Under the pieces are notes generated by a model, which was not told the DNA's origin, made no database searches, and worked only from the letters and a program-made list of their open reading frames with translations. Below are positions 1-31,255 of a stretch of DNA of 64,000 nucleotides, piece by piece. The translations under genes and the position numbers were made by a program. Source of the DNA: Thermoplasmata archaeon UBA61. Its GTDB lineage: Archaea > Thermoplasmatota > Thermoplasmata > Lutacidiplasmatales > UBA184. The first letter of the stretch is position 1, and each line of letters starts with the position of its first letter. The DNA lies in the NCBI GenBank assembly GCA_002503985.1, contig DASW01000007.1, positions 108,435-172,434 on the forward strand, read 5' to 3'.

Positions 1-609
1 CGCTTCGGGGAGGAGGCACCGCCGTCGGTCACGTCCGAGAACGGCCAGCTGGTCGTGAAGGTCAAGGACCGATTGATGGCCGGCGAGGAGGTGGAGCTCC
101 GTCCGGACCTCGTCGTCCTCGTCACGGGCATGGTCCCTCGGGAGGATGGAGAGGTCGCACGTGTCCTCAAGATCCCGATCGGCAAGGACGGATTCTTCCA
201 TGAAATCCACGTCAAACTGCGCCCCGTGGAGACGGTCGTCGACGGGGTCTTCATCGCCGGCGCCGCCCAGGGACCGAAGAACCTCGCGGAGAGCGTCACG
301 AGCTCGATGGCCGCGGTCTCGAAGGCCGCCGCTCTCCTCTTGAAGGGATACGTCGACCTCGACCCGATGGTAGCGGAGGTCAACCCGGACCTCTGCGCGT
401 GGTGCGACGCGTGCACCCTCGCATGCCCCTACGGGGCCGTGGAGAAGGTCGACCACGGTGGCACCGCGGTGGCGCGGATCAACGGCATCCTCTGCAAGGG
501 GGAAGGTGCGTGCGTGCCGGTTTGCCCGAAGCAGGCGGTCTCGGTCAAGGGATACACGAACGACCAGGTGCGCTCGATGATCGACGCGCTTGTTCAGGAG
601 GTCGCATGA
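1..609 (+). CDS. hdrA: HdrA-like heterodisulfide reductase subunit A, C-terminal part (5'-truncated by window edge)
   Basis: The frame is open from nt 1 with no stop before the ORF-track start at 55, which is a GTG. The C-terminus carries two CxxCxxCxxxCP ferredoxin motifs (CAWCDACTLACP, CKGEGACVPVCP) after a FAD-domain tail VFIAGAAQGPK. It is followed by hdrC and hdrB. Confidence 0.8.
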   Translation, partial: RFGEEAPPSVTSENGQLVVKVKDRLMAGEEVELRPDLVVLVTGMVPREDGEVARVLKIPIGKDGFFHEIHVKLRPVETVVDGVFIAGAAQGPKNLAESVTSSMAAVSKAAALLLKGYVDLDPMVAEVNPDLCAWCDACTLACPYGAVEKVDHGGTAVARINGILCKGEGACVPVCPKQAVSVKGYTNDQVRSMIDALVQEVA

Positions 610-857
610 CGGGCACGTCCCGCCTCCGGGACCTCGGAGAGGTCCTGAGGGACGAGCTCGTCGAGCAGGACCGTATCGCGGAGGTGCTCCGCGCCGGCCC
701 GAAGACGCTGCCCGAGATCGCCGAAGCGCTCGGTCGCCCGCCCCATGAGGTCACGAAGTGGGTGATGGCGATGCGCCGGTACGGACGGGTCCGAGACCTG
801 CCCAAGTCCCGGACGGACGACTACTACCCGTACGAGCTCGTGGAGGAGCGCCGATGA
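606..857 (+). CDS. small winged-helix (HTH) protein embedded in hdrACB operon
   Basis: An 83-aa ORF. Its ATG at 606 overlaps the hdrA stop (ATGA). The sequence LPEIAEALGRPPHEVTKWVMAMRRYGRV looks like a wHTH. Confidence 0.55.
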   Translation: MTGTSRLRDLGEVLRDELVEQDRIAEVLRAGPKTLPEIAEALGRPPHEVTKWVMAMRRYGRVRDLPKSRTDDYYPYELVEERR

Positions 858-1162
858 GGGTGGACCCGCAGTTCCTGACCCGCGTCCGTCAGGGCGGGGA
901 GTTCGATGCGAGCGTCTGCATGAACTGCGGCGTGTGCACCGCCCTCTGTCCGCTGGGGGTCGAACTGCTCCCCCGGCGACTCTTCCGGTACGTTCTGCTC
1001 GGCAACCCCGACGCCGTCCGTGAGCAGACGGAGACGATCTTCTCCTGCCTCCTCTGCCACATGTGCGAGTCGAACTGCCCGGCCGGGGTCCACATCACCG
1101 AGAACGTGCGAACGCTGCGGACCCATCTCAATCGCGAGCAGTACCACCTCGCGGAGGCCTGA
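854..1162 (+). CDS. hdrC: HdrC-like heterodisulfide reductase subunit C (2x[4Fe-4S])
   Basis: Motifs CMNCGVCTALCP and CLLCHMCESNCP. The ATG at 854 overlaps the upstream stop (ATGA) and is preceded by GGAGG. Confidence 0.8.
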   Translation: MRVDPQFLTRVRQGGEFDASVCMNCGVCTALCPLGVELLPRRLFRYVLLGNPDAVREQTETIFSCLLCHMCESNCPAGVHITENVRTLRTHLNREQYHLAEA

Positions 1163-1175
1163 GGTCGGAGGGACC

Positions 1176-2147
1176 ATGTCGGTACCGATCGGAAGCACTC
1201 TCGGCATCCTCGGCGACAACCTCCGCAAGCGCGGGAGCGCCCTCCCCCTCTCGCGTCGTGTCGCGACCGCTTGGGCGAAGGGGCTCGACCTTCCACGGGG
1301 AGGCGAGACCGTGCTCTACACGGGCCAGATGTGGCAGATGGTCCCGGCGATCAACGCGATGAGCCGACAGCTCGGCAAGTACGAGGGGCGGGGAACGCGA
1401 CTCTTCGGGTTCGCCCGCTCGATGAACAAGGTCGTCAACCTGACCCCGTTCCTCGCCCGGACCACTCCGAGCGAGCGAACGGCGTACAACGAGCGCCTGC
1501 GGAACATCGTCCGCCTCCTTCGGGCCGCCGGCGTCGAGTTCGGCTACCTCTACGAGAAGGACCTCTATCCGGGGACGTTGGCGTACGACGAAGGCCTTAC
1601 TCAGGGGTTCGTCGCGCACGCCCGCCGCGTGGCGAGGACCCTTCGCGAGAGCGGGGCGAAGCGGTTGATCACCGTCGACCCCCACACGACCAACATCCTC
1701 CGCAGCGTCTACCCGAAGGTGGTAGACGGCTTCGACCTGAGCGTCCGTAGCTACCTCGAGGTCCTCGCGGATCGCACGCTCACGGCGACCGAACCGCTCC
1801 ACGAGTCGGTCACGATGCACGATTCCTGCGTCTACGCGCGGTACGAGGGGGTCGTCGAGCAGCCCCGTCTCCTCCTGGCCCGCGGCGGGGTCGACATCGT
1901 CGAGCCCGAGCTTTCGGGTTCGATGACGTTCTGCTGTGGAGGCCCGCTCGAGACGCTCTTCCCGGGAAAGTCGACGGAGATCGCTCGCAAGCGGGTCGAA
2001 CAACTCTCCGCGTGCCGCCCGAACCTCGTCACCGCCTGCCCGCTCTGCCTCGCGAACCTCCAGCGGGTCGCCCCGACGGGAGTGGAGGTCCGGGATATCT
2101 CGGACTATCTGGTCCGGGCGTACTGTCCGGTCGTGACCCCCGCTTAA
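1176..2147 (+). CDS. hdrB: HdrB-like heterodisulfide reductase subunit B (two CCG domains)
   Basis: Cysteine-rich CCG-type motifs (CCGG, CPLC). GGAGG RBS before the ATG at 1176. Typical ~320 aa length. Confidence 0.8.
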   Translation: MSVPIGSTLGILGDNLRKRGSALPLSRRVATAWAKGLDLPRGGETVLYTGQMWQMVPAINAMSRQLGKYEGRGTRLFGFARSMNKVVNLTPFLARTTPSERTAYNERLRNIVRLLRAAGVEFGYLYEKDLYPGTLAYDEGLTQGFVAHARRVARTLRESGAKRLITVDPHTTNILRSVYPKVVDGFDLSVRSYLEVLADRTLTATEPLHESVTMHDSCVYARYEGVVEQPRLLLARGGVDIVEPELSGSMTFCCGGPLETLFPGKSTEIARKRVEQLSACRPNLVTACPLCLANLQRVAPTGVEVRDISDYLVRAYCPVVTPA

Positions 2148-2233
2148 CGTGCTGCTCTAGGAAGAGCGCGTCGCATCGCGTAGCAGTTCCGCGGGGCACA
2201 GCCGACGTCACGGCCCGAGCTCGGGTCGATGTC

Positions 2234-3028
2234 TCAGCTTCGGGCTATCTTGGCGCGGTCGATCTCCGCCTTGATCCGGGACGCGGCCTCGTCGGGGGTC
2301 ACGGTGACCGTTTCGCGTCGCCGCCCGGCCTTCTTGACCTCGCGGAGCCCGGCCACCGCGGTCGGGGAGCCCTTGAGCCCCAGGTACTGCGGGTCGCCGC
2401 AGAGCTCCTTCTCGTTCCAAACCTGCACCTTCGCGCTCTGGGCGAACGCCCACCGGTCGTAGTCGAGGAAGCGGGGCTCGTTGGAGCCGACGACCACGGA
2501 GATGACCGCGGGGACCGAGAGCTCCACGGTCTCCTTTCCGTCCTCGAGCACCCGCGTCGCGTGGACGGTCCCGTGCTTTCCTGGGACGAGACGCTCCACG
2601 TAGGTTGCCTGGGACGCGTTGAGCCATTCGGCGATGCTGGGGGGGACCTGGCTGGTCCCTCCATCCGAAGACTCCTCGCCGCAGAGGACCAGGTCGACCT
2701 TCCCGATCTTCCGGATCCCGGCCGCGAGCGTGTAGGAAGTGGCCAACGTATCGGCTCCGCCGAACGCTCGGTCGCTCAGCAGGATCGCCTCGTCCGCGCC
2801 GACGGCGAGGGCCACGCGCAGGTACGGCTCGAACGGAGGAGGGCCCATCGAGAGCACGGTCACCTTCCCGCCGTGGGCGTCGCGGAAGGCGAGCGCGGTC
2901 TCGAGGGCGTTCATGTCGGAGGAGTTGATCACCGACCGGGCCCCGGCCCGGTCGAGCATCTTGGTCGCGAGGTCGACCTTGACCTCCTCGGGACGGGGAA
3001 CGACCTTCATGCAGACGACGATATGCAT
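2234..3028 (-). CDS. etfB: electron transfer flavoprotein beta subunit
   Basis: N-terminus MHIVVCMKVVP with EtfB/FixA-like sequence. Start at the ATGCAT palindrome, 3 nt after the etfA stop. Confidence 0.9.
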   Translation of the reverse strand: MHIVVCMKVVPRPEEVKVDLATKMLDRAGARSVINSSDMNALETALAFRDAHGGKVTVLSMGPPPFEPYLRVALAVGADEAILLSDRAFGGADTLATSYTLAAGIRKIGKVDLVLCGEESSDGGTSQVPPSIAEWLNASQATYVERLVPGKHGTVHATRVLEDGKETVELSVPAVISVVVGSNEPRFLDYDRWAFAQSAKVQVWNEKELCGDPQYLGLKGSPTAVAGLREVKKAGRRRETVTVTPDEAASRIKAEIDRAKIARS

Positions 3029-3030
3029 CG

Positions 3031-4011
3031 TCAGGCCCCCCCGAGCGACCGCAGCAGGGATTCGACGACGGGACCGAGGTCCCCCACGATCCCGAGGTCG
3101 GCGTGCTCGAAGATGGGAGCTTCGGGGTCCCGGTTCACCGCGACCACCGTCCCCGCTCCATCGATGCCGACCGTGAACTGCACCGCGCCGCTGACGCCGA
3201 GCACGAGGACCAGCTTCGGTCGGGTGATGACCCCGGTCTGGCCGATCATCCGGTCCCGGTCGACCCAACCCGCGTCCGTGGCCACGCGCGTCGCGCCGAC
3301 CTCGCCTCCGAGGCGACGCGCGAGCTCCTCGATCCGACCGAAGTTCCCGCCCGTTCCCCGTCCCCCGACGACGATGACGTCGGCCCGGGTGAGGTCGATG
3401 GAGGAGCCTTTCGGTTCGAAGGAGACCCGGCGCGAGCCCACGTCCTCCTCCGAGAGGTCGACCTTCACGGTCTTCACGTCCCCGGTGGGAGACCCCTCGG
3501 GAGGCGCGAGGAAGACCCCGGGCCGGACCGTGACCATCTGGGGTCGCTTCTCGGGGCAGGTGATCCCGGCCTCGATCCCGCCGCCGAACCCCGGCACCCA
3601 GCCGACGAGTTGACGGCCTCCGTCGAGCTCGAGCGATGTGACGTGCGCGGTGAGGCCCGTGCGAAGCCGCACGGCCAGCCGTCCGGCCAGGTCCTGGCCG
3701 TTCCGCGTCGCGCCGAGGAGGAGGGTCGAGGGGTGGGCCTTCTGGATGGCCGTGCCGAGCGCCTTCGCGTAGGCCTTGCCATCGTGGACGGCGAGGAGCG
3801 GGTGGACCAGTTCGAGAACGTGGTCGGGACCGTATCGTTGGAGCTCGGAGGCCGCTCCGCCGTCGTTCCCGACGGTCACGGCCGTCACCTCGACGGAGAG
3901 CTGGCGCGAGAGCTCCTTCGCCTTGCCGAGGATCTCGAGGCTCACGGGGGTGAATGACGACCCGCGCCGCTCGGCGTAGACCCAGAGGCCGCCGTCGTCC
4001 GTGGCCGTCAT
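3031..4011 (-). CDS. etfA: electron transfer flavoprotein alpha subunit
   Basis: EtfA-like sequence with a FAD-binding C-terminal domain (VLVLGVSGAVQF, GIVGD). Confidence 0.9.
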   Translation of the reverse strand: MTATDDGGLWVYAERRGSSFTPVSLEILGKAKELSRQLSVEVTAVTVGNDGGAASELQRYGPDHVLELVHPLLAVHDGKAYAKALGTAIQKAHPSTLLLGATRNGQDLAGRLAVRLRTGLTAHVTSLELDGGRQLVGWVPGFGGGIEAGITCPEKRPQMVTVRPGVFLAPPEGSPTGDVKTVKVDLSEEDVGSRRVSFEPKGSSIDLTRADVIVVGGRGTGGNFGRIEELARRLGGEVGATRVATDAGWVDRDRMIGQTGVITRPKLVLVLGVSGAVQFTVGIDGAGTVVAVNRDPEAPIFEHADLGIVGDLGPVVESLLRSLGGA

Positions 4012-4015
4012 GGCT

Positions 4016-5140
4016 TCAGGCCTTCACTCGCCCGGCGATGAGTTCGGCCACGTCCGTTACGGGGATCGCCTCGGACCCCCGCTCGGACTCGAAGACGCTG
4101 ATGCAGTACGGACACGCGGTGGCGAGGAGCTCCGCACCGGTTCCCGCGGCTTCCTGGACGCGACGGGTCCCCGGCCGCTCAGCCGGAGGGGTCTCCATCC
4201 ACATCCGTCCCCCGCCGCCTCCGCAGCAGAGCGCCTGGGCGCGGCTGTTCCCCATCTCGACCACCTTGAGTCCCGAGAGCTCGAGCAGCCGTCGGGGGGG
4301 CTCGTAGACGCCGTTGTGGCGGCCTAGGTAGCACGGGTCGTGGTAGGTGACGGTCCCCTTCTCGGACCCTTTGGTGAGCTTCCCGGAGTCGAGCAGCTGC
4401 TCGATGGCCTGCGTGTAGTGGACCACCTCCGGCCCTCCGTTCGCCGACTGGCCGGCCTTGAGCGCGTCGAAGGAGTGCGGCGAGATCGCGATCACCCGTT
4501 CGACCCCCCGCTTTCGGAAAGCCTCCGTGTTCCGCTGCTGGAGGTCCCGGAAAAGCCCGTCGTGTCCGACCGAGCGGGCCGCCTCCCCGCAGCAGACCTC
4601 CTCCGTGCCCATGACCTGGTATTCTACGCCGGCGAGGTTGAGGAGGGCGGCGACCGATCGGGCGATGCGTTGCGCCCGGGGGTCGTAGGAGGCCGCGCAG
4701 CCGACAAAGAGGAGCGTGGAGCCCTTCCCGGGAACCTTCACGTCCTGCATCCAAGAGGCGCGCTGCTTCGGCGGGAGATGGAAGGTGTTGCCGTCGGAGT
4801 ACATCCCCCACAGGAGCGTCGGTAGCCCTTTCGGCACGTTCCGGGTGCGCCACTCGCGCCCCCGGAGGGTCCGGACGAGACCTACAATGTCCACGCCGCG
4901 CGGGCAGGACGCGTTGCACTCCGCGCACGTCATGCACTTCCAGAGGAACGCGTCGGTTTCGCCGAACTGGGCCTCGCGGACCAGTTGGCGCACCCGCAGC
5001 GGGGTGTTCTCCGCCAGGGGGCACGCCGCGGTGCACGTGCCGCACTGGAAGCATAGGTTCGCGTTGGTCGTGGCCGCGAGGGCCTCCCAGGCCTCGTCGT
5101 CGAATCGGACCGGGGCGGGGTTCTCGGAGCGTTGGGCCAT
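4016..5140 (-). CDS. HdrD/GlcF/GlpC-like iron-sulfur oxidoreductase (2x[4Fe-4S] + two CCG domains); probable ETF-linked FeS oxidoreductase
   Basis: Motifs CFQCGTCTAACP and CMTCAECNASCP plus CCG motifs (VCCGEAA, LCCGGGGG). Start chosen at MAQRS (5140) because of the AAGGTGG RBS; the first ATG at 5167 would overlap the upstream gene. Confidence 0.8.
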   Translation of the reverse strand: MAQRSENPAPVRFDDEAWEALAATTNANLCFQCGTCTAACPLAENTPLRVRQLVREAQFGETDAFLWKCMTCAECNASCPRGVDIVGLVRTLRGREWRTRNVPKGLPTLLWGMYSDGNTFHLPPKQRASWMQDVKVPGKGSTLLFVGCAASYDPRAQRIARSVAALLNLAGVEYQVMGTEEVCCGEAARSVGHDGLFRDLQQRNTEAFRKRGVERVIAISPHSFDALKAGQSANGGPEVVHYTQAIEQLLDSGKLTKGSEKGTVTYHDPCYLGRHNGVYEPPRRLLELSGLKVVEMGNSRAQALCCGGGGGRMWMETPPAERPGTRRVQEAAGTGAELLATACPYCISVFESERGSEAIPVTDVAELIAGRVKA

Positions 5141-5150
5141 GGCGACCACC

Positions 5151-8100
5151 TTAGCTCGCCCCCGCAACCGGCGCCGCCGGCGGCGACGTGACGTTCTCCC
5201 GTGAGGCGTTGTAGCGGTCGAGGACCTTCGCCATCTCGCGAACCTTGCGGGCGAACTCCTTGCCCTCGGCGGCGGAGATCCACTCGAGCTGGAATCGCTC
5301 GGGGGTGATCCCCTTGCGCTCCAGCATTCGACTCCAGGTCTTGAATCGCTTCTCCGTCCAGGAGTTGGCGTTGATGTAGTGGCAGTCGCCCGGATGGCAG
5401 CCGGTCAGCAGGACCGCGCCGGCGCCCTTCTCGAACGCGTGCTTGACGAAATCCTCCGAGACGCGACCCGAGCACATCGTGCGCACGGTGCGCGCGACGG
5501 CCGGGTATTGGATCTTCTCGATGCCGGCCTGGTCCGCCCCGGCGTAGCTGCACCAGTTGCACGCGAAGACGATCACCTTGTGCTGGGGGTCGTCCTCGAG
5601 GGCGGCGTCGATCTGGGCCAGGACCTGGTCGTCGGTGAACCCGGGGTTCGTGATGGCGTCGCGGTAGCAGTCGGCGCCGCAGGTCCCGCACCCCATGCAC
5701 GCCGCTCCGACCACGCGGACCTTCTTCTTGCCGTCCACGACGATCGGTTCGATGGCCCCGTACGGGCAGACGGGCACGCAGCGACCGCAGCCATTGCACC
5801 GCTCGAAGTCAACGAGCGCGACCAGCGGTTCCTTTTCGATGATCTCGTGAGAGAGGAGCCCGCTCGCCTTCGCTGCCGTTGCCAGGCCCTGCGCGATCGC
5901 CTCGGTGACGTCCTTCGGTCCCTGGGCGCTGCCGCACAGGAAGATCCCCGCGCTGGCCGCCTCGACCGGTCCGAGCTTCGGGTGGCGTTCGAGGAGGAAC
6001 CCGGCCGAATCCCGCGAGACCTTGAGCATCTGGGAGAGCTCCGGCTCGGTCGGCTCGATCGCGCTCATCAGGACCAGTAGGTCGGTGGGCAGTTCCACGT
6101 CCCGTCCCAGGAGCTCGTCCCGGAAGACCACGCATCCGTCCCGGATTTGGAGCGCCTTCTCGGGGGTTGTGTCGGGGTACTGGAAGAACGCAACCCCGGC
6201 TGCCGCGGCCTCGCGGTAGAGGTCCTCGGCACCGCGCGCGTAGGCGCGCATGTCGCGATAGAGAACACGAACTTTCTTTCCCATCCGTCGGAGGCGAAGG
6301 GCCTGACCGACCATCGAGCCGCAGCAGTATCGGGAACACTCGAGTTTCCCGTTCCTCGAACCGACACAGCCCACGAACGTGACCCGCTCCCCGGGCACCT
6401 GGCCCTCGCGGATCATCTCGTGCAGCCGCTCGTTGGTGATGCTGAGCGGTGCCTTCGCGCTCGAGAGCGGGCCCTCGGTCGCCGCCTCAGTGGAGGTCTT
6501 GCCTCCCGTCGCAAGGATCACCGTTCCGACGTCGATGACCTCCCCGGTGGAGAGATGGGCTCGGAACTCGCCGACGTGGCCCTCGATTTGGGCGACCACG
6601 GAGGAGAGGTGCACCCGCGCTCCGGACGACTCCACCTCATGGACCATCGCCTCGAGCAGCGGGCCGGCCTCGACCCCGGACGGGTCGATGTACGACATGA
6701 AGCGCAACGCTCCGCCGAGGCGGTCGCTCTTCTCGACGAGATGGACCTCGTAGCCCATCCGGGCCAGGCTGGAGGCCGAGGACATCCCCGCGGGCCCGCC
6801 GCCGATCACGAGGGCCGCGCGCACGACCTTCTGCTCGAGAGGGATCAGCGGCTTGAGCCGAACGGCCTTCTCGACGCCCATCCGGACGAAATCTTCGGCC
6901 TTGGTCGTGGCCTGCTCCTTCTCGTTCTTGTGGACCCAGGAGTCGAGGTTCCGGACGTTGGCCATTTCGAGGAGATACGGATTCAGGCCCGCGCGTAGGC
7001 AGACCCGCTTGAACGTTCCCTCGTGGGTCTTGGGCGAGCAGGCGGCCACCACGAGGCGGTTGAGCTGGAGGTCGACGATCTTCTTCGCCATGTCCGCCTG
7101 GGTGTTCGCGGCGCAGGCGAACCGGACTTCCTCGGCGTGCACGACGTGTGGCAGCGACGCCGCGTACTGCGCCGTCCTCGGTACGTCCACGGTGCCGGCA
7201 ATGTTGCTCCCGCAGTCGCAGAGGAAGACCCCCACGCGGGCCTCGCCGTCGGTCGGGAGCGGCGCGCCGATCTCCGGCTTCGCCCAGGCACGCTCGTTCG
7301 CCCGTTCCATCGACCGCGCCGCCGCTGCCCCGCCTTCGACGACGCTGTCGGGGATGTCCTTCGGTCCGGCGGCGCTGCCGGCCACGAAGACGCCGGGAGG
7401 CGCGCCCTCCTCGGTCATGAAGCCGTCCGTCCCGGTCCTTAGGCCTAGGACCTGGGCTAGCTCGAACAGTCCTTTCGGGGGCTTCGCGCCCGTCGCGAGC
7501 ACGATGAGGTCGGCGCCGACCTCTTGAAAGTCACCGGTGACGGTGTCCGCGACGCGGACCTTGAGCTCCTCACCATCGAACCGGACGCGGGACGGCCGTC
7601 CGTGGACGAAGTGGACCCCCAGGTCCTTGGCGCGCTGGTAGAAGCCGTCGAATCCCTTGCCGTAGCTGCGGATGTCCATGTAGAGAATCGTCACGTCCTC
7701 GACGCCGTGGTCCCGCGCCTGGACGGCCTCCTTGATGGAGTACATGCAGCAGAATCGGGAACACTGCGGGATGTTCCGGACGTCCCGGGACCCCGCGCAC
7801 AGGACGAAGACCACGCGTTTGGCGTGCCGTCCGTCGGACGGGCAGATGATCTCCCCACCGCTCGGACCCGCCGAGGAGAGGAGCCGCTCGAGCTCCATCG
7901 AGGTGAGGATGTCCGGGTGCGTTCCGTACCCGTACTCGGGTAGGAGATGGGGGTCGAGGAGCTCGAACCCGGCCGATACGATGACCGACGAGACCTCACG
8001 CTTCAGCTCTACCCCGAGCGGGCGGTCGTAGCCGATCGCCTTCGGCCCACAGGCATCGTAGCACCGGGTGCACGGGAGGAGGATCGGATAATCGTTGACG

Positions 8101-8555
8101 CACTGCTCGACGTCCAAGAAGTACGGCCCGGGGACCGCCTGAGGGAACGGGGTGTAGATCGCCTTCCTCGAGGCCAACCCCTGGTCGAAGGCGTTGGGGA
8201 GCACGACCGGACAGGCCTGGACGCAAAGGTCGCAGCGGGTGCACGCGCTGCTGACGAGGTTCCCCTTCTGACGGATCGTGACCTCGTACCCTTCCCCCTT
8301 CTTCTCGAGGCCCACGACGTCCGCGTCGGTGATGATCTCGACGTTACCGTTCTCCGCGACCTCGCTCAGCTTCGGGGCCTCGATGCAGATGCTGCAGTCG
8401 AGCGTCGGGAAGTTCTTGTCGAGCCCCGCCATGACACCACCGAGAGAGTGGGTCTTTTCGACGAGCACCACTCGGCAGCCCGCTTCGGCCAGGTCGAGCG
8501 TCGCCTGGACGCCGGCGATGCCGCCGCCGATCACCATGACGGGAGCCGAGCTCAC
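5151..8555 (-). CDS. tandem HdrA-HdrA fusion with C-terminal MvhD-like domain (1134 aa)
   Basis: Two FAD-binding HdrA-like modules (VIGGGIAG..., VIGGGPAG...), each with Cys clusters. C-terminal MvhD/FlpD-like segment (VIVFACNWCSYAGAD...CHPGDCHY). GTG start overlapping the OFOR gamma stop (GTGA); an alternative ATG lies 18 nt downstream. Confidence 0.85.
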   Translation of the reverse strand: MSSAPVMVIGGGIAGVQATLDLAEAGCRVVLVEKTHSLGGVMAGLDKNFPTLDCSICIEAPKLSEVAENGNVEIITDADVVGLEKKGEGYEVTIRQKGNLVSSACTRCDLCVQACPVVLPNAFDQGLASRKAIYTPFPQAVPGPYFLDVEQCVNDYPILLPCTRCYDACGPKAIGYDRPLGVELKREVSSVIVSAGFELLDPHLLPEYGYGTHPDILTSMELERLLSSAGPSGGEIICPSDGRHAKRVVFVLCAGSRDVRNIPQCSRFCCMYSIKEAVQARDHGVEDVTILYMDIRSYGKGFDGFYQRAKDLGVHFVHGRPSRVRFDGEELKVRVADTVTGDFQEVGADLIVLATGAKPPKGLFELAQVLGLRTGTDGFMTEEGAPPGVFVAGSAAGPKDIPDSVVEGGAAAARSMERANERAWAKPEIGAPLPTDGEARVGVFLCDCGSNIAGTVDVPRTAQYAASLPHVVHAEEVRFACAANTQADMAKKIVDLQLNRLVVAACSPKTHEGTFKRVCLRAGLNPYLLEMANVRNLDSWVHKNEKEQATTKAEDFVRMGVEKAVRLKPLIPLEQKVVRAALVIGGGPAGMSSASSLARMGYEVHLVEKSDRLGGALRFMSYIDPSGVEAGPLLEAMVHEVESSGARVHLSSVVAQIEGHVGEFRAHLSTGEVIDVGTVILATGGKTSTEAATEGPLSSAKAPLSITNERLHEMIREGQVPGERVTFVGCVGSRNGKLECSRYCCGSMVGQALRLRRMGKKVRVLYRDMRAYARGAEDLYREAAAAGVAFFQYPDTTPEKALQIRDGCVVFRDELLGRDVELPTDLLVLMSAIEPTEPELSQMLKVSRDSAGFLLERHPKLGPVEAASAGIFLCGSAQGPKDVTEAIAQGLATAAKASGLLSHEIIEKEPLVALVDFERCNGCGRCVPVCPYGAIEPIVVDGKKKVRVVGAACMGCGTCGADCYRDAITNPGFTDDQVLAQIDAALEDDPQHKVIVFACNWCSYAGADQAGIEKIQYPAVARTVRTMCSGRVSEDFVKHAFEKGAGAVLLTGCHPGDCHYINANSWTEKRFKTWSRMLERKGITPERFQLEWISAAEGKEFARKVREMAKVLDRYNASRENVTSPPAAPVAGAS

Positions 8556-9073
8556 AGCCGCGCCCCCGCGTCGAAGGCCTTCATGTTCAGTTCCCGGGTC
8601 GACGCTTTGACCGTTTCCCGAAGCGCGGCCTCCATCGCCTCTCGCGGAACGATCTGGGAAGCATTCGTGAACGCGCCGAGCATCACCACGTTCGCGACGA
8701 TGCGCCGTCCCAGGCCATCCGCGGTCCGGGTGAACGGAAGTTGGTGCGCTTTCTGAGCGACGTCATCGTCCAGGTGGACCAGGTCCACGTCGCTGAGGAC
8801 GAGCGACGCCGCCCTCGCTTGGTCCATGTGCTTGGTCGCCGCCTCCTGCGAGAGCAGCACCAGGACGTCGGGGTGCGTGACCATCGGAGTATCGATCTCG
8901 GCGTCGCCCACGACCACGTCGGCCTCGCAGGAACCCCCGCGCGACTCGGGCCCGTAGCTCTGGGTCATCGTGGCGTGCATCGGGGTGTGGACCGACACCG
9001 CCCGACCGAGAATGAACGCGGAGAGGATTACTCCCTGACCGCCGAACCCGGCGAACCGGACCTCCTTCCTCAT
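8552..9073 (-). CDS. 2-oxoacid:ferredoxin oxidoreductase gamma subunit
   Basis: MRKEVRFAGFGGQGV... is a PorG/KorC-like fold. ATGA overlap with the beta subunit stop. Confidence 0.85.
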   Translation of the reverse strand: MRKEVRFAGFGGQGVILSAFILGRAVSVHTPMHATMTQSYGPESRGGSCEADVVVGDAEIDTPMVTHPDVLVLLSQEAATKHMDQARAASLVLSDVDLVHLDDDVAQKAHQLPFTRTADGLGRRIVANVVMLGAFTNASQIVPREAMEAALRETVKASTRELNMKAFDAGARL

Positions 9074-9936
9074 GATTTCGACCCCCTCGCCTTCGCGACC
9101 ACCCGCACGTACCGCTCGCGGAAGGTCTCCCGCTCTCGGTCGACGAACGTGCCGACGACTATCGGCTTTCCGAGCTCGATATCGGTCTTCGTGATCTCGG
9201 TGCTCTCGACGCGGGACTTCAGGACCTCGAGCGCCTGGTAGTATTCCATCTCCTCGACGCCGCTGCCGATCTTGTTGGTCTTTCCGAAGCTCACCGGGCA
9301 GGGAGTGAGGATCTCGACGAACCGAAACCCGTGGCGGTTGACGACGTCTGCGAAGGTGTTCCGAAGCCTCCGCACGTCCAGCGTGGTCCAGCGGGCGACG
9401 TAGGTCGCCCCGGTCGCCCATGCGAGGTTCGGGAGGTTGAAGGGAAACTCCGGGTTGCCGTACGGGGTGGTGGTCGAGAGGGCCCCCGCTGGGGTCGTCG
9501 GACCGCCCTGGCCGCCGGTCATGCCGTAGTTGAAGTTGTTGATGCAGACGACGAGGATGTCCATGTTCCGCCTCGCCGCGTGAATGAAATGGTTACCGCC
9601 GATGGCGAAGAGGTCCCCGTCGCCGGCGAACGCGACCACGTTCAAGCTGGGGTTACAGAGCTTCAATCCGGTGGCGAACGGTATCGTTCGGCCGTGGGTC
9701 GTGTGGTAGGCGTCGGTCTTGGCGTAGAAGACGATCCGAGAGGAGCAGCCGATCCCTCCCACGATCACCCGCTTCTCCTTCGGGACCCCCGCTTGCTCGA
9801 AGCCGTAGATGAGCGCCCCCACGGCCGTTCCGATGCCGCAGCCCGGGCACCAGATCGTGGGCAGGTCCGCGCTCCGGAGCAGATGGTCGTACGGGTGGAG
9901 CTCCGGGGGGAGCGCGACCTCGGCGTTCGCCGTCAT
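9070..9936 (-). CDS. 2-oxoacid:ferredoxin oxidoreductase beta subunit (TPP-binding)
   Basis: Motifs WCPGCG, GIGCS, GDGD. ATGA overlap with the alpha subunit stop. Confidence 0.9.
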   Translation of the reverse strand: MTANAEVALPPELHPYDHLLRSADLPTIWCPGCGIGTAVGALIYGFEQAGVPKEKRVIVGGIGCSSRIVFYAKTDAYHTTHGRTIPFATGLKLCNPSLNVVAFAGDGDLFAIGGNHFIHAARRNMDILVVCINNFNYGMTGGQGGPTTPAGALSTTTPYGNPEFPFNLPNLAWATGATYVARWTTLDVRRLRNTFADVVNRHGFRFVEILTPCPVSFGKTNKIGSGVEEMEYYQALEVLKSRVESTEITKTDIELGKPIVVGTFVDRERETFRERYVRVVAKARGSKS

Positions 9937-11138
9937 GGCTTCGCCCTCCGCGGGGACATGCACGCCTCCAAGATCGTCTCCGGCGAGATGACCTGTCCAC
10001 CGGGATTGCCGACGTGGACCACCTCGGCGTAGGGCCCGGCGATCCTTCGTACTTCGAGCACTACCTGGCCCAGGTTGATCTCCGCCACGACGATCTTCGT
10101 GACGTTCTTGAGCGAACGGAGCTGTTCCGCAGGGAAGGGCCAGACGGAGATCGGCCGGAACAGGCCGAGGGCGAGACCCTTCTCCCGGCCGAGGTCCACC
10201 GCTCGGCGGGCCGATCGCGCGGTGATCCCGTAGGCGACCACGAGGGTCGTCGCGTCCTCCGTCTTGTAGAGGCCGAGCCGTTCGTAGACGTCTCGGTTCT
10301 TCAGAATCTTGTCTCGCAGTCGGGGCACGAGAACCTTCTGGGCAGCGTACGTGGTGACGGGCCGCCCGTCCTCGTCGTGCGTGAGCCCGGTGAACAGGAC
10401 CGAGTATCCCTCCCCGGCGAGCGCCATGGGGGGCACCAGGTCCGGCCCGGGCCGGTAGGTATGGTACTCCTCCGGGGGGACAGTAGCTCTCGGTCGGGCG
10501 ACCAGCGGGATCTCTCCGGGAGGAGGGATGACGACCCGCTCGTGCATGTGACCCACGACCTCGTCCATCATCAGGAGGACCGGGGTCCTCAGCCGCTCCG
10601 CCACGTTGAACGCGTGAATGGTGAGGTTGAACGCCTCTTGGGGAGACTGGGGAGAGAGTGAGATCGATGTGAAGTCGCCGTGCGGGCCGAAACGGGCCTG
10701 CATCATGTCCTGCTGGCCCACGGTGGTGGGGAGACCGGTGCTCGGTCCGCCACGTTGGACGTCCACCACCACCGTGGGCACCTCCATCATGTAGGCCAGA
10801 CCGAGGTTCTCCATCATCAGGGAGAATCCCGGGCCGGAGGTCGCGGTCATGCTCTTGGCGCCCGTCACGCTCGCACCCAGGATCGCGATCATGGAGGCGA
10901 TCTCGTCCTCCATCTGGATGTACTGGCCCCCGACTTCCGGGAGCCGTTCCGCGAGCCGCTCCGCGATCTCGGTGGCGGGGGTGATAGGGTAGCCGGCGAA
11001 GAATCGGCAGCCGGCATAGAGCGCACCCTCGGCGCAGGCGTGGTCCCCGGAGAGGAACTGCGTGCCGGTACGGGGGCGGTCCCACACGGGGGAAAGGATC
11101 AGATTCGGGGGCTCGGTCACGCTCCGGGCTTCGCTCAT
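9933..11138 (-). CDS. 2-oxoacid:ferredoxin oxidoreductase alpha subunit
   Basis: KorA/PorA-like sequence. Start at MSEARS, overlapping the delta subunit stop (ATGA). Confidence 0.9.
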   Translation of the reverse strand: MSEARSVTEPPNLILSPVWDRPRTGTQFLSGDHACAEGALYAGCRFFAGYPITPATEIAERLAERLPEVGGQYIQMEDEIASMIAILGASVTGAKSMTATSGPGFSLMMENLGLAYMMEVPTVVVDVQRGGPSTGLPTTVGQQDMMQARFGPHGDFTSISLSPQSPQEAFNLTIHAFNVAERLRTPVLLMMDEVVGHMHERVVIPPPGEIPLVARPRATVPPEEYHTYRPGPDLVPPMALAGEGYSVLFTGLTHDEDGRPVTTYAAQKVLVPRLRDKILKNRDVYERLGLYKTEDATTLVVAYGITARSARRAVDLGREKGLALGLFRPISVWPFPAEQLRSLKNVTKIVVAEINLGQVVLEVRRIAGPYAEVVHVGNPGGQVISPETILEACMSPRRAKP

Positions 11139-11428
11139 GGTGAGTCCTCCACCACGTAGATCGCATAGTCCGGGCAAACGTGCTCACAGAACCGACAGGC
11201 GATGCAGTCGCCCTCCTTCCCGGTCTTCACGCGGGCGGGTCGGTACCCCCGGGGGGTGTAGTGGTCGGAGATCTCCAGCACCTCCTCCGGGCAGAACTGG
11301 ACACAGAAATTGCACTCCTTGCACCGGAGCTCGATGACGTGGACCGTCCCGTGGTGACGGGTGGGCTTATCGATAGGAGCGCGCGACCCATGCGATGTTT
11401 GGAGGCTATTCGCGATAGCCATGTTCAC
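11135..11428 (-). CDS. 2-oxoacid:ferredoxin oxidoreductase delta subunit (2x[4Fe-4S] ferredoxin)
   Basis: Motifs CKECNFCVQFCP and CIACRFCEHVCP. First gene of the minus-strand operon. Confidence 0.85.
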   Translation of the reverse strand: MNMAIANSLQTSHGSRAPIDKPTRHHGTVHVIELRCKECNFCVQFCPEEVLEISDHYTPRGYRPARVKTGKEGDCIACRFCEHVCPDYAIYVVEDSP

Positions 11429-11519
11429 GACTCAGCGCGGGTGCGGTCGGTACAACGGGGGGCCAAGGCCATCCCGGGCGTCGTTACCACGATAAGCACA
11501 GGTTGGTACGGAACGCATG

Positions 11520-11580
11520 AGCGCGTAGTCAAGCTATATTGACGCACGGGAACCGCTTAATCCTTCGGAATCAGGACCCG
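11520..11580. promoter_or_regulatory. AT-richer divergent intergenic segment (candidate promoters for the OFOR operon and the MFS gene)
   Basis: The sequences agctatattgac and cgcttaatcc sit in an otherwise ~65% GC context, between divergent starts at 11428 and 11643. Confidence 0.25.
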
Positions 11581-11642
11581 AGGGCAGTTCAAGGGCTCCG
11601 GAGCGCGGTACGTTCGAGTGAGTTCGTAGGGGAGAAATCGCC

Positions 11643-13268
11643 ATGATGGATGAAAGAGGAGGTCCCGAAGAGGACCAGCCGCCGCTGGCCAGCTCGACCT
11701 CTCCTACTCCCAAGACCGCCGAAACCTTCGACCGACACTACGCCAACCGCGTCATGCTACTCCTGGCCGGGGTCGTCCTCGTGGTCCTCTACATCGAGGG
11801 GATGCTCCTACCGTCCCTGAACACGATTCAGTTGGACTTCCACGTCGACGCCGCCCAGGTCACGTTGATCCTATCGGCCTACGCCGCCACGGGCGTAGCG
11901 CTCAGCCCGGTGGTCGGCAAGCTCGGGGACATCTACGGGAAGCGGAAGGTCATGATCGTGGTCATGTTCACCTACGCGGCGTCCGTCTCCGTCACCGGCT
12001 TCTCGCCCAACTTCGCTTTCATGGTAGGGGCGCGGACCATCCAGGGCGTCGGCCTGACGATCATGCCGCTCGGGATGTCGCTCATGCGGGAGGAGTTCCC
12101 CCGCGAGATGGTCCCCCGGGCCCAAGGACTCCTGAGCGCTATGTTCGGTATCGGCTTCGCGATCAGCCTTCCGCTCGGGTCGTGGGTCTCCCAGGATTAC
12201 GGGTGGCGAACGACCTACCACTCGGCGGTGCCGTTCGTGATCCTCATGGCTGTCTTGGTCTTCCTCCTGGTCAAGGAGTCCCCGTACCGCCGACCCGACA
12301 CGCGCGTCGACTATCTCGGGGCGGTATTTCTGGGCCTCAGCCTAGCGGGCATCGTGATCGCCCTTTCCCAGGGAGAGGCGTGGGGATGGACCTCGCTGAT
12401 GACCTTGGGCTTCGCCGTGTTCGGGGTGCTCATGGTCGTCCCGTTCGTGGTGGTCGAGAGGAGGTTGACCGTTCAGAAGCGCGAACCCATCGTCGACCAG
12501 CACCTGCTCCGAGAGAGGAACGTGGCGGTCACGAACATCGTCCTGACCGTCGCCGGTCTCGGGATGTACCTGGCGATGTTCAGTCTGATCTACCAGTTCG
12601 AGTACCCAATCGCCTCTGGGGGATACAATGCCTCGTGCACCTCGCTCCTGAACTGCAACTTTCAGATCCTCAACGCCGGTATCGATATCCTTCCGTTGGC
12701 CGTTGGGATGACCTGCTTCGCCCTGTTCACTAGCTTCGTGGTCTCCCGAGTAGGCATCAAGCCGCTCGCCCTCGCCGGTGGTCTCATCACGGCCCTAGGT
12801 TTCGTCTTGGAGGCCTACGCCCGTACGCTGGGGGTCGCTCTGGGCATCGAGGTGCTCGTCGGGGCCGGAATGGGCCTTCTCAACGCCTCGATCATCAACC
12901 TCCTGATCCTGACCGTGGACCCCAAGGACATGGGCCAGGCCACGGCGATGAACAACGTGTTCCGCAACGTGGGAGGCAGCGTGGGCGCTCCCGTCGCCGG
13001 TTCGTTCCTCTCCACGTACCTTCTGACCACGGGACCCTTCGCCGGGGTTTTCCCGGCTCACATGGCGTTCCAGTCCGTCTACTTCCTCGCCGCAGGGATC
13101 ACTGTGGCCGGGACCGTGACCGTCCTATTCGCTCAGGAAGTTCTCGGGGTCCGTCGGCACGCGAAGTTTGCCCATCACCCAATGCTACCGCGCAGGGCCT
13201 GGAGGGGCCGCGATGCGCCCGCACCGGCGGACCCGACCCCGGCGCCTCTGCTCAGTCGTGGGCCTTGA
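11643..13268 (+). CDS. MFS transporter (14-TMS, DHA2-like)
   Basis: Multiple hydrophobic helices. Motif near TM2-3: GKLGDIYGKRKV. Confidence 0.85.
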   Translation: MMDERGGPEEDQPPLASSTSPTPKTAETFDRHYANRVMLLLAGVVLVVLYIEGMLLPSLNTIQLDFHVDAAQVTLILSAYAATGVALSPVVGKLGDIYGKRKVMIVVMFTYAASVSVTGFSPNFAFMVGARTIQGVGLTIMPLGMSLMREEFPREMVPRAQGLLSAMFGIGFAISLPLGSWVSQDYGWRTTYHSAVPFVILMAVLVFLLVKESPYRRPDTRVDYLGAVFLGLSLAGIVIALSQGEAWGWTSLMTLGFAVFGVLMVVPFVVVERRLTVQKREPIVDQHLLRERNVAVTNIVLTVAGLGMYLAMFSLIYQFEYPIASGGYNASCTSLLNCNFQILNAGIDILPLAVGMTCFALFTSFVVSRVGIKPLALAGGLITALGFVLEAYARTLGVALGIEVLVGAGMGLLNASIINLLILTVDPKDMGQATAMNNVFRNVGGSVGAPVAGSFLSTYLLTTGPFAGVFPAHMAFQSVYFLAAGITVAGTVTVLFAQEVLGVRRHAKFAHHPMLPRRAWRGRDAPAPADPTPAPLLSRGP

Positions 13269-30884: not shown

Positions 30885-31255
30885 CCGGCGGAACAGGTGC
30901 CGGCCCCGTATTCGAATTCGAAGCGTTCGGCGCCGCCGTTGGATTGGCCGTCGTCTGCGGGGGGTTGTCGATAGTGTTCCCGCTCCTCATCGCGCCGACG
31001 GCCACGCTCGCCGCTCTCGCGTTGGCGGGATGGGTCTCGCGGGCCCGACGACGGGGTTCGCTCACCCGAAAGGGTCCGGGCACTGGGCCGGCGATCGCGC
31101 TCAGCGTTCTGGGGGCCGCTGCGATCTTGTTCCTCATTGCTCCCCCATCCCTCGCCGCCTTTCGTGGCCTCCTCCTTGCGGGGGGTCTCGTCCCGCTCTT
31201 CGCGACCGAGCGAACTTCGTCTCCGCTTCGCTCCCCGGTGTTCTCCCGTTCATGA
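30881..31255 (+). CDS. small membrane protein (3 TM)
   Basis: ATGA overlap at both ends. Hydrophobic throughout. Confidence 0.5.
   Translation: MTGGTGAGPVFEFEAFGAAVGLAVVCGGLSIVFPLLIAPTATLAALALAGWVSRARRRGSLTRKGPGTGPAIALSVLGAAAILFLIAPPSLAAFRGLLLAGGLVPLFATERTSSPLRSPVFSRS

Follow-up and report, generated by a model that had tools for sequence, protein, structure and literature searches.

A widespread operon joining a 2-oxoacid oxidoreductase to a fused HdrA-type flavoprotein, an HdrD-like protein and EtfAB probably encodes an undescribed electron-bifurcating enzyme

The redox operon and its products

We analysed a stretch of 64,000 nucleotides (nt) of contig DASW01000007.1 from Thermoplasmata archaeon UBA61 (the window), within whose first 11,428 positions lies a minus-strand operon for a four-subunit 2-oxoacid:ferredoxin oxidoreductase (OFOR), a 1134-residue HdrA-type flavoprotein, an HdrD-like iron–sulfur protein and both subunits of an electron-transfer flavoprotein (ETF). 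The G+C content of the region (63-71%) gives rise to many spurious open reading frames (ORFs), from which translation and family searches told the real genes apart. The eight genes are transcribed in the order korD-korA-korB-korG, the large HdrA-type gene, the HdrD-like gene, etfA and etfB, and form a tightly packed operon in which neighbours overlap or nearly abut (Table 1). Stop and start codons overlap as ATGA at the delta/alpha, alpha/beta and beta/gamma junctions and as GTGA at the junction between gamma and the large protein; further along, the gaps measure 10 nt before the HdrD-like gene, 4 nt (AGCC) between that gene and etfA, and 2 nt between etfA and etfB. A first-pass annotation of this DNA had given the same gene content, order and strands, a single compact minus-strand operon, the four overlaps and the 10-nt gap, and all of these held; its 3-nt gap before etfA is the 4-nt gap measured here. 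The GTGA overlap requires that the large protein start at its GTG; some gene callers choose an ATG 18 nt downstream, which yields 1128 amino acids (aa). Proteins identical to those of the operon are also encoded on contig JBEJZZ010000001.1 (GCA_050018495.1).

No transmembrane-like segment was found in any of the eight products. The intergenic region that separates korD from the divergent gene for a major facilitator superfamily (MFS) transporter contained no Rfam family and no inverted repeat, and an Rfam search of positions 1-13000 gave no match. The sole RNA- or terminator-type feature seen when the operon and its leader were examined was a 9-nt palindrome in the convergent gap.

Table 1 Features of the redox operon and its immediate surroundings, in window positions
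Feature	Positions	Strand	Remarks
korD, OFOR delta subunit, 97 aa from GTG (95 aa from ATG)	11135..11428	-	2x[4Fe-4S] ferredoxin-like; stop overlaps korA start (ATGA)
korA, OFOR alpha subunit, 401 aa	9933..11138	-	NF006412, 521.7 bits
korB, OFOR beta subunit (TPP-binding), 288 aa	9070..9936	-	PF02775; ATGA overlap at each end
korG, OFOR gamma subunit, 173 aa	8552..9073	-	NF006323, 189.5 bits; PF01558
Large HdrA-type protein with MvhD, 1134 aa	5151..8555	-	Assigned by domain searches and HdrA alignment; predicted 2 FAD, 7 [4Fe-4S], 1 [2Fe-2S]
Module 1 of large protein, aa 1-430	7266..8555	-	TrxR-like FAD domain; LDKNFPTLDCSIC motif (C54/C57); inserted 2x[4Fe-4S] domain, C105-C169; Lys275
HdrA N-terminal-type domain, aa 438-570	6846..7244	-	C446, C448, C481 and C506 conserved 76/76; aligns to HdrA 3-168
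Module 2 of large protein, aa 578-905	5841..6824	-	Diverged TrxR-like FAD domain; GGGPAG, GG and KD motifs and [4Fe-4S] Cys 730, 740, 744, 745 kept
C-terminal 2x[4Fe-4S] ferredoxin domain, aa 913-968	5652..5819	-	Pfam Fer4_21/Fer4_7; 8 Cys conserved 76/76
Fused MvhD/FlpD domain, aa 994-1112	5220..5576	-	PF02662, E 1.9e-44; predicted [2Fe-2S] and one extra Cys
HdrD/BamD/EtfD-like Fe-S protein, 374 aa	4016..5140	-	2 cubane [4Fe-4S] motifs and 2 CCG domains
etfA, 326 aa	3031..4011	-	PF01012 and PF00766
etfB, 264 aa	2234..3028	-	PF01012
Divergent intergenic region, korD/MFS transporter gene, 214 nt	11429..11642		Presumed promoter site
3' end of a separate operon	1..2147	+	hdrA C-terminus 1-609, 83-aa wHTH 606-857, hdrC-like 854-1162, hdrB-like 1176-2147; not part of the module

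All four OFOR subunit types named at first pass were recovered: alpha (POR_N/PFOR_II), beta (TPP_enzyme_C), gamma (POR) and delta (2x[4Fe-4S]). KorA scored above the curated NF006412 cutoff of 411, and its closest solved relatives are 1yd7_A (alpha subunit of the P. furiosus 2-keto acid:ferredoxin oxidoreductase, E 1.5e-104) and 8ys5_A (2-oxoglutarate synthase alpha). The best matches of KorB, KorG and KorD all belong to KOR/OOR families and lie under the equivalog cutoffs; they include the beta subunit of 2-oxoglutarate ferredoxin oxidoreductase for KorB (231.5 bits) and OorD and the OGOR delta subunit for KorD. The OFOR is of the KOR/OOR type, with family-level hints towards 2-oxoglutarate as its substrate.

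The large protein matched methanogen HdrA (5ODC) strongly overall (E 1e-170) in a phmmer comparison with solved structures, in three pieces that are not collinear with it. Residues 6-382 correspond to HdrA 146-520, comprising the thioredoxin reductase (TrxR)-like flavin adenine dinucleotide (FAD) domain and the inserted ferredoxin domain; residues 438-603 correspond to HdrA 3-168, the N-terminal cluster domain and the start of the FAD domain; and residues 839-988 correspond to HdrA 503-652. The stretch from 604 to 838 gave no phmmer alignment to HdrA, and we read it as a diverged second TrxR-like domain because it aligns to module 1. Modules 1 and 2 are 33% identical over 181 residues (E 2e-24), which marks a real internal duplication. 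Module 1 is without the N-terminal and C-terminal ferredoxin domains of HdrA, and module 2 is without the inserted ferredoxin domain, the FPTxDCSxC motif with its Cys pair, and the Lys, where G750/Q751 stand instead. The full accessory set of HdrA is present once per polypeptide, divided between modules neither of which is a complete HdrA. The 1134-residue frame and its C-terminal MvhD domain stood as first described, but in place of the two complete HdrA modules claimed with them, the protein reads as a fused HdrA pseudo-heterodimer of complementary halves followed by MvhD.

Residue conservation was counted over 76 relatives of the large protein taken from related loci. Thirty-five cofactor Cys residues are conserved in at least 75 of these, and 32 are invariant (76/76). 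They suffice for the C54/C57 pair, seven [4Fe-4S] clusters and a [2Fe-2S] cluster with one additional Cys. All residues listed for module 1 are present in 76/76 relatives, among them the C54/C57 pair, the [4Fe-4S] site formed by C253, C265, C269 and C270, and K275, which lies in CCMYSIK and aligns to HdrA K409 (5ODC numbering), the Lys beside N5 of the FAD. This Lys occurs in module 1 only; at the same position module 2 has Gly, Ser or Gln followed by Q751, kept in 74/76. Both dinucleotide-binding motifs and both GxxxGPKD-type motifs are retained in at least 75/76 relatives (G10/G12/G15 and K399/D400 in module 1, G585/G587/G590 and K881/D882 in module 2). A second module stripped of its FAD-binding residues, allowed for at first pass, was not what we saw, and module 2 looks specialised, not degenerate. 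The MvhD domain matched solved MvhD chains with E values from 5e-35 to 2e-19, and its five Cys are kept in at least 75/76 relatives. An AlphaFold2 model of the large protein from an 18-sequence alignment (pLDDT 74.8, pTM 0.77, the cluster-binding loops being modelled at low confidence) had HdrA chains as its best fold matches, 5odc_A giving a TM score of 0.75 normalised to the target. By sequence, the large protein carries every hallmark of an HdrA-type bifurcating flavoprotein, and the FAD of module 1 is the predicted bifurcating flavin.

Domain searches confirmed the first assignments of the HdrD-like protein, EtfA and EtfB, as well as the HdrA-type modules, the PF02662 domain at the C-terminus of the large protein and the two CCG domains of the HdrD-like protein. 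The latter protein matched PF02754 twice (E 2.7e-30) together with Fer4 families; its best solved relative is EtfD of M. smegmatis (9ojn_A, E 2e-53) and its best NCBIfam match is thiol:fumarate reductase TfrB (126.9 bits, below cutoff). It contains no hydrophobic segment (maximum 19-residue Kyte-Doolittle mean 1.15), indicating a soluble protein, and no hdrE-like gene lies near the module in the flanks of the 80 loci compared below. Over 72 relatives, the eight cubane Cys are invariant (72/72) and the five Cys of CCG2 are each present in at least 71. In CCG1, the first Cys of the CxxC pair is Ser in 70/72 relatives, with the sequence SPHC in 61/72, and the window's Thermoplasmata clade (8 sequences) has SPHS at residues 220-223, having lost both Cys. 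CCG1 is still more degenerate at three Chloroflexota loci (L049, L055 and L059).

These changes bear on the function first assigned to this protein, that of a terminal reductase, which we take to mean one acting on (hetero)disulfides or persulfides in the manner of HdrABC, with ETF as an extra donor or acceptor. The catalytic clusters of HdrB do sit in CCG domains, TfrB is the best family match, and in this genome the module has a TusA/DsrE-linked Hdr operon beside it. However, the CCG1 ligands are reduced in nearly all relatives, and EtfD and BamD, which are changed in a similar way, are described as non-catalytic relays. No thiol-carrier gene is conserved with the module in the flanks of the 80 loci, and the neighbouring sulfur-carrier operon is not conserved beside it. 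BamD, the HdrD-like subunit of class II benzoyl-CoA reductase, has a blocked heterodisulfide site and a Cys-to-Ser change that makes its distal non-cubane cluster [3Fe-4S] (bioRxiv 10.64898/2026.04.10.717634). We consider a terminal reductase very improbable; since the protein is closest to EtfD and shares the BamD-type Cys-to-Ser change in its CCG motif, a relay of electrons to or from ETF seems the more likely role.

EtfA is closest to alpha subunits of the bifurcating type (7koe_B, 5ol2_A and 6fah_A, at 219-224 bits), scoring 179.8-224.2 bits against bifurcating ETFs and at most 116.6 bits against non-bifurcating ones. The corresponding values for EtfB are 142.6-188.3 and at most 57.8 bits, with CarD (6fah_B, E 1.6e-54) as the closest chain. 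In LctC and CarE, bifurcation requires an Arg of EtfA (R205 in LctC) that forms a hydrogen bond with N5 of the beta-FAD. The EtfA motif TRPxFGGN reads (E/W)V(T/S/P)GFGGG here, with Val in place of this Arg in 68/70 relatives. The EtfB motif DGDTAQVGP reads DG(A/G)T(G/S/A)QVP(P), in which about six of nine positions are kept, the second Asp is replaced by Ala, Gly or Ser in 70/70 and the Gly by Pro in 70/70; the SPT anchor is kept in 58-70 of 70 relatives. We place this ETF in the bifurcating lineage on similarity and do not file it as bifurcating, and with the key Arg missing we regard it as a weakened candidate for an NADH entry point. One Thermoplasmatota metagenome-assembled genome (MAG) has a further etfB-etfA pair immediately downstream of the module (L044:16710-18410), and the EtfA of that pair keeps a Lys (MKPAFGG) at the position of the Val.

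Conservation of the eight-gene module

A scan with one genome per species found 524 relatives, of which the best 80 loci were taken; synteny was scored by tblastn with the window proteins, and loci were counted if they had at least 3 kb of upstream or at least 3.3 kb of downstream flank. All four kor genes lie upstream of the large gene in 67/67 loci with enough flank, and hdrD, etfA and etfB lie downstream in 61/61; gene order and strand are those of the window, apart from the kor inversion in Elusimicrobiota described below. The adjacency of kor genes and the HdrA-type gene, which the first-pass annotation had proposed to look for in other archaea, is complete wherever it could be scored and spans two domains of life. 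The related loci come from Thermoplasmata, Bathyarchaeota and other archaeal MAGs, and among bacteria from Chloroflexota (Anaerolineae, Dehalococcoidia and Thermoflexus), Armatimonadota, Elusimicrobiota, Planctomycetota, Rokubacteria/Methylomirabilia, Zixibacteria and Acidobacteriota. The species representatives closest to the window locus are Thermoplasmata archaeon records. A rough neighbour-joining tree separated two archaeal groups and one bacterial group, with some phyla mixed. We conclude that the eight genes make up a self-contained module that has moved between phyla in one piece. The strict co-conservation of the large gene with the OFOR, HdrD-like and EtfAB genes argues for one functional unit.

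The exact architecture of about 1130 residues occurs in at least 120 protein clusters and 524 species representatives. Among 50%-identity representatives, the window's family forms one cluster, accompanied by a few other MvhD-fused families of about 1100-1180 residues at 37-41% identity and by dozens of families of about 950-1070 residues that are collinear with residues 5-986. Among the relatives of about 950-1070 residues that are without MvhD, the Lys is also present in the second TrxR module in 44/75, and there are relatives of about 1290-1530 residues with N-terminal extensions of several hundred residues. The tandem fusion had been called unusual at first pass; fusions of this kind are published for BamE, for HdrA3/4 of anaerobic methanotrophic (ANME) archaea and for the HdrA of Moorella. 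HdrA fusion as such is common, and fused HdrAs are far more diverse than the handful of described cases would suggest. In public databases the large protein goes under generic names ('heterodisulfide reductase subunit A2', 'hydrogenase iron-sulfur subunit', 'FAD-dependent oxidoreductase').

No ninth conserved gene (for an NAD(P)H, F420 or H2 module, a ferredoxin, an acyl-CoA dehydrogenase or ETF:quinone oxidoreductase) was found within +/-10 kb of the 80 loci; when all flanking ORFs were clustered, the commonest flanking family, that of the citrate-synthase-like genes, occurred in 10/80. Within the window, the remaining sequence (11.6-64 kb) held no related redox genes; it carries a transporter, hydrolases, an ABC transporter, IS110 elements and unknowns. 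Six Anaerolineales loci (L036, L041, L055, L058, L067 and L073) are flanked by genes for citrate-synthase-like, SucC-like (513 aa), SucD-like and pyruvate-kinase-like proteins. These neighbours could be tricarboxylic acid (TCA) cycle enzymes or citryl-CoA synthetase/lyase-type enzymes; as TCA-type neighbours they would hint at 2-oxoglutarate as the substrate and fit oxidative use. In Elusimicrobiota only, the kor order is inverted to G-B-A-D, so that korD lies directly before the large gene (L043:1339-4387 and L040:4-177).

The linkage data bear on whether the eight products form one complex or are only co-expressed. In the second case, the OFOR would reduce free ferredoxin, and the large protein, the HdrD-like protein and EtfAB would make up a separate ferredoxin/ETF/NAD(P) bifurcating oxidoreductase resembling FixABCX/EtfABCX. 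Such a division would suit KorDABG, which has a standard four-subunit make-up with no extra domains, and would suit the inserted ferredoxin domain of methanogen HdrA, which serves free ferredoxin (PMC9012536; bioRxiv 10.64898/2026.04.10.717634). However, there is no ferredoxin gene in any of the clusters, and 100% linkage across two domains of life, together with the translational overlap of korG and the large gene, is stricter than is usual where the tie is no more than metabolic. The genes remain attached even in Elusimicrobiota, where the kor order is inverted. We therefore judge separate complexes to be, on balance, unlikely.

Proposed electron flow and its alternatives

The operon probably encodes an undescribed electron-bifurcating enzyme akin to the core of class II benzoyl-CoA reductase. 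More specifically, the eight products may form one soluble cytoplasmic HdrA-type bifurcating or confurcating complex, built like the BamDEF-ETF core, with the OFOR as its low-potential arm and working in the confurcating direction, a reading in which we place middling confidence. The genes, their domain plan, the conserved cofactor ligands and the strict synteny are directly observed; from these we infer the physical association of the subunits, the branch occupied by the OFOR, the third substrate and the direction of electron flow. The bifurcation- or confurcation-type complex suggested at first pass gains support from the HdrA hallmarks and the strict co-conservation; the terminal CCG reductase, the rarity of the fusion and the supercluster that went with it are not supported. 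The earlier wording, by which reduced ferredoxin from 2-oxoacid oxidation feeds the complex, assumes both a direction and free ferredoxin.

The BamDEF-ETF structure of 2026 offers a direct template for the module. BamE is a fused HdrA dimer with a domain permutation and clusters E1-E7; its bifurcating FAD lies in the N-terminal TrxR domain beside Lys280 and the Cys59-Cys62 pair, and its second, non-bifurcating FAD lies beside Gln768 (bioRxiv 10.64898/2026.04.10.717634). BamF is a [2Fe-2S] adaptor of the MvhD type, electrons reach the low-potential module by way of the inserted ferredoxin domain, and ETF docks on BamD and takes the high-potential electron, as established by cryo-electron tomography and an assay (bioRxiv 10.64898/2026.04.10.717634). 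When compared via the published residue numbers, C54/C57, K275 and Q751 of the window protein correspond to BamE C59/C62, K280 and Q768, and the Cys-to-Lys spacing is 221 residues in both. No protein with the exact BamE residue numbering was found among the 50%-identity representatives.

By homology to BamDEF and HdrABC, the branch point would be the FAD of module 1, beside Lys275 and the C54/C57 pair. The low-potential branch would lead by way of the N-domain cluster and the inserted ferredoxin domain to KorD, and from there to the thiamine pyrophosphate (TPP) site of the KGOR-type OFOR, and the high-potential branch from the [4Fe-4S] cluster of module 1 through the HdrD-like protein and its CCG clusters to the FAD of EtfAB. 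A third, mid-potential port would be formed by the C-terminal ferredoxin domain and the fused MvhD domain, and the FAD of module 2 would be non-bifurcating and probably structural. In confurcation, oxidation of a 2-oxoacid (~-500 mV) would pull the re-oxidation of reduced ETF (~0 mV, fed by acyl-CoA dehydrogenases), a step that is unfavourable by itself, and electron pairs would pass to a mid-potential acceptor, most likely NAD(P)+. The high-potential arm to ETF is the best supported, in that the genes are adjacent, the HdrD-like protein resembles EtfD and BamD, and a complex of BamD with ETF has been published. The OFOR most plausibly belongs on the low-potential arm, because half of its -500 mV electrons would be lost if it stood at the input port and ETF were the acceptor; its entry via the inserted ferredoxin domain is suggested because in BamDEF that domain serves the low-potential catalytic module.

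Candidates for the third port are NAD(P)H or F420H2 acting directly on the HdrA-type protein, NADH at EtfB, and an unlinked hydrogenase or dehydrogenase. Direct reaction of NAD(P)H or F420H2 with an HdrA-type protein has reportedly been proposed for HdrA2B2C2 and for the Moorella complex. Some Chloroflexi have a group 3c hydrogenase beside a different hdrA2B2C2-hdrD-etf cluster. The module could represent a new enzyme class, in which a TPP-dependent OFOR is wired protein-to-protein to the low-potential arm of an HdrA-type flavin without free ferredoxin and NAD(P)H or F420H2 reacts directly on the HdrA-type protein; we advance this tentatively, as possible but doubtful.

If no third substrate took part at all, the assembly would be a linear, non-bifurcating 2-oxoacid:ETF oxidoreductase in which the HdrA-like and HdrD-like proteins serve as a wire to ETF and quinone. 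No third-substrate module is encoded, and a ferredoxin-to-ETF 'short-circuit' reduction has been seen in vitro with class II benzoyl-CoA reductase (bioRxiv 10.64898/2026.04.10.717634), as a wire would lead one to expect. However, such a wire would discard about 500 mV, and it would be hard to explain why K275 and C54/C57 are retained in 76/76 relatives, why the MvhD Cys are retained in at least 75/76 and why the C-terminal ferredoxin clusters are kept. We regard it as distinctly unlikely.

Several observations weigh against a confurcating complex with the OFOR on its low-potential arm. There is no NAD(P)H-, F420- or H2-reacting subunit in the operon or its conserved flanks, and no partner for the third port is encoded there. 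The mean of the two donors, (-500 + ~0)/2, is about -250 mV, so NAD+ reduction at -320 mV is slightly uphill and the bifurcating direction is favoured on paper. The association of the OFOR with the Hdr-type proteins is itself inferred, and KorD looks like an ordinary delta subunit. The ETF is without the bifurcation Arg and its beta-FAD motif is altered, such that an NADH site cannot be assumed. The distal CCG site in the window's clade has only three Cys and the invariant His222. Finally, the likeness to BamE, BamD and BamF rests on published residue numbers, not on aligned sequences.

Run in reverse, the same complex would bifurcate electrons from NAD(P)H or another mid-potential donor, driving reductive carboxylation by the OFOR with one electron and reducing the quinone pool through ETF with the other, a 'Fix-like' reaction without free ferredoxin. 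At standard potentials this direction should be thermodynamically favoured; the closest solved relatives of the alpha subunit include the 2-oxoglutarate synthase 8ys5_A, and a self-contained module that has moved between phyla would be compatible with it. Against it, no genes of the reductive TCA cycle or of other carbon-fixation routes are conserved near the 80 loci, no NAD(P)H-binding subunit was identified, and the carriers belong, by their record titles, to lineages of mostly heterotrophs (Anaerolineae, Thermoplasmata, Bathyarchaeota and Elusimicrobiota). This heterotrophy and the TCA-type neighbours in Anaerolineales lead us to favour confurcation, with low confidence in the direction, and to rate the reverse as unlikely.

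A full-text literature search found no paper describing a kor-hdrA-hdrD-etfAB cluster; one study of Zixibacteria noted Mvh/Hdr, POR and KOR genes in a large cluster and did not recognise a complex. Partners of HdrA-type bifurcation have so far been hydrogenase, formate dehydrogenase, F420H2, MetFV and, very recently, benzoyl-CoA reductase. If the proposed complex exists, it would add a partner from central metabolism (OFOR and ETF) to this list, carried by at least 524 species representatives of soil, peat, groundwater and sediment lineages in both domains. It would bear on how fermenting or syntrophic degraders of amino acids and fatty acids dispose of ETF electrons, and on how OFORs obtain or shed very low-potential electrons without energy loss. 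In one direction, NAD(P)H would drive reductive carboxylation while the partner electron goes to ETF and quinone, giving 'Fix-like' CO2 fixation in non-autotrophs; in the other, 2-oxoacid oxidation would lift beta-oxidation electrons from ETF to NAD(P)H. In either case, the database names of the large protein would be corrected.

Neighbouring genes and related systems

The first-pass annotation had joined the operon to the hdr genes facing it on the plus strand as a 'convergent supercluster'. We excluded these genes from the unit, since they form the 3' end of a different, TusA/DsrE/HdrL-type operon of nine genes, which starts about 6.6 kb left of the window and is whole in L082:3359-10972, where the order is dsrE-like, helix-turn-helix (HTH; ArsR/MarR-type), tusA, mvhD, 910-aa hdrA, 577-aa hdrA, 83-aa winged HTH (wHTH), hdrC-like and hdrB-like. 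It abuts the module in this species only, lies 4.5 kb away in L012 and is absent within 7 kb in L001 and L005, so the convergence is a local accident of gene order. In the 910-aa HdrA, an NfnB/GltD-like NAD(P)H module takes the place of the ferredoxin insert ('HdrL' type). In the HdrB-like protein, only the second CCG domain was detected (one Pfam CCG match) and the first CCG motif is without Cys; at most one non-cubane cluster would be expected. The operon resembles an Hdr system that is linked to NAD(P)H, associated with sulfur carriers and built on two HdrAs paired as a heterodimer.

Elsewhere in the window, two adjacent IS110-family transposase genes (DEDD_Tnp_IS110 and Transposase_20) occupy 60183-61277 and 61471-62559 on the minus strand. 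Very long ORFs without a Pfam match encode 2121 aa (52069-58434, minus strand), 1047 aa (43676-46819, plus strand) and 750 aa (26321-28573, plus strand), and the same stretch contains genes for a HerA-like ATPase (31030-32946) and a DUF932 protein (47343-48218); it may be a mobile or defence-related island. One ORF (34310-35614, plus strand) joins an OMP-decarboxylase/HUMPS-family domain with an RraA-like/aldolase domain.

Among known systems, BamDEF with ETF, from the BamBCDEFGHI complex of Geobacter metallireducens, is among the closest. Both have a fused HdrA dimer with seven [4Fe-4S] clusters, an N-terminal FAD site of the bifurcating type with its Lys and Cys-x2-Cys pair, and a second FAD beside Gln. 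Both also have a [2Fe-2S] adaptor of the MvhD type and a soluble HdrD-like protein whose CCG site shows a Cys-to-Ser change and whose partner is ETF (by gene linkage in the window). They differ in that the window MvhD is fused to the large protein, has Cys where BamF has Sec and is without the extra BamF domains, and in that the window operon includes the genes for its ETF, a member of the bifurcating-ETF lineage. The tungsten BamBC module and the NADH/ferredoxin-confurcating BamGHI are missing from the window, where a four-subunit OFOR is linked instead. No BamBC- or BamGHI-type genes were found in the operon or within +/-10 kb at the 80 loci, and the module is therefore not a benzoyl-CoA reductase.

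EtfD, the ETF:menaquinone oxidoreductase (EMO) of M. smegmatis, is a membrane protein with five transmembrane helices, heme b and a long disordered tail (PMC13083937). It shares with the window's HdrD-like protein two cubane motifs, two CCG domains, a reduced first CCG site and ETF as partner, whereas it is membrane-bound, carries heme b and passes electrons to menaquinone and the window protein is soluble and linked to an HdrA-type protein.

The MvhAGD-HdrABC complex of methanogens (5ODC) has the same HdrA domain set, a Lys near N5 of the FAD, an MvhD adaptor, HdrC-like cubane and HdrB-like CCG clusters. Where that complex contains an HdrA homodimer, the window protein is one polypeptide with each accessory domain present once, and HdrB and HdrC are fused as the HdrD-like protein; there is no hydrogenase, and with its reduced CCG site the module is probably not a heterodisulfide reductase. 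HdrA2B2C2 of Methanosarcina acetivorans likewise has MvhD fused to the C-terminus of HdrA, and its family NF040770 is the best NCBIfam match of the large protein. Membership of that family was rejected, the score of 1036.9 bits being under the cutoff of 1100 and the match falling into three non-collinear pieces. The window protein has an additional TrxR module, and its partners are the HdrD-like protein, ETF and OFOR, not HdrB2C2. HdrA2B2C2 reportedly uses F420H2 with no dedicated dehydrogenase subunit.

Tandem HdrAs also occur in ANME HdrA3/4 and in the MetFV-HdrABC-MvhD complex of Moorella, where complementary loss of the N-terminal domain and of the Cys197-type ligand is read as an internal heterodimer (PMC9012536). 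Two HdrA units per polypeptide with complementary losses are found in the window protein as well. In HdrA3/4, however, the N-domain is on the N-terminal unit and Cys197 on the C-terminal one, the reverse of the window arrangement, and the gene partners are different. The ETFs most similar to that of the window belong to Bcd-EtfAB, CarCDE, Ldh-EtfAB and FixABCX/EtfABCX, which also couple low-, mid- and high-potential partners; in those complexes the branching flavin is in the ETF, whereas in the window module it is predicted to lie in the HdrA-type protein. The parts of the module are all of known families, and what is new is their combination, an OFOR hard-linked to a core resembling BamDEF-ETF.

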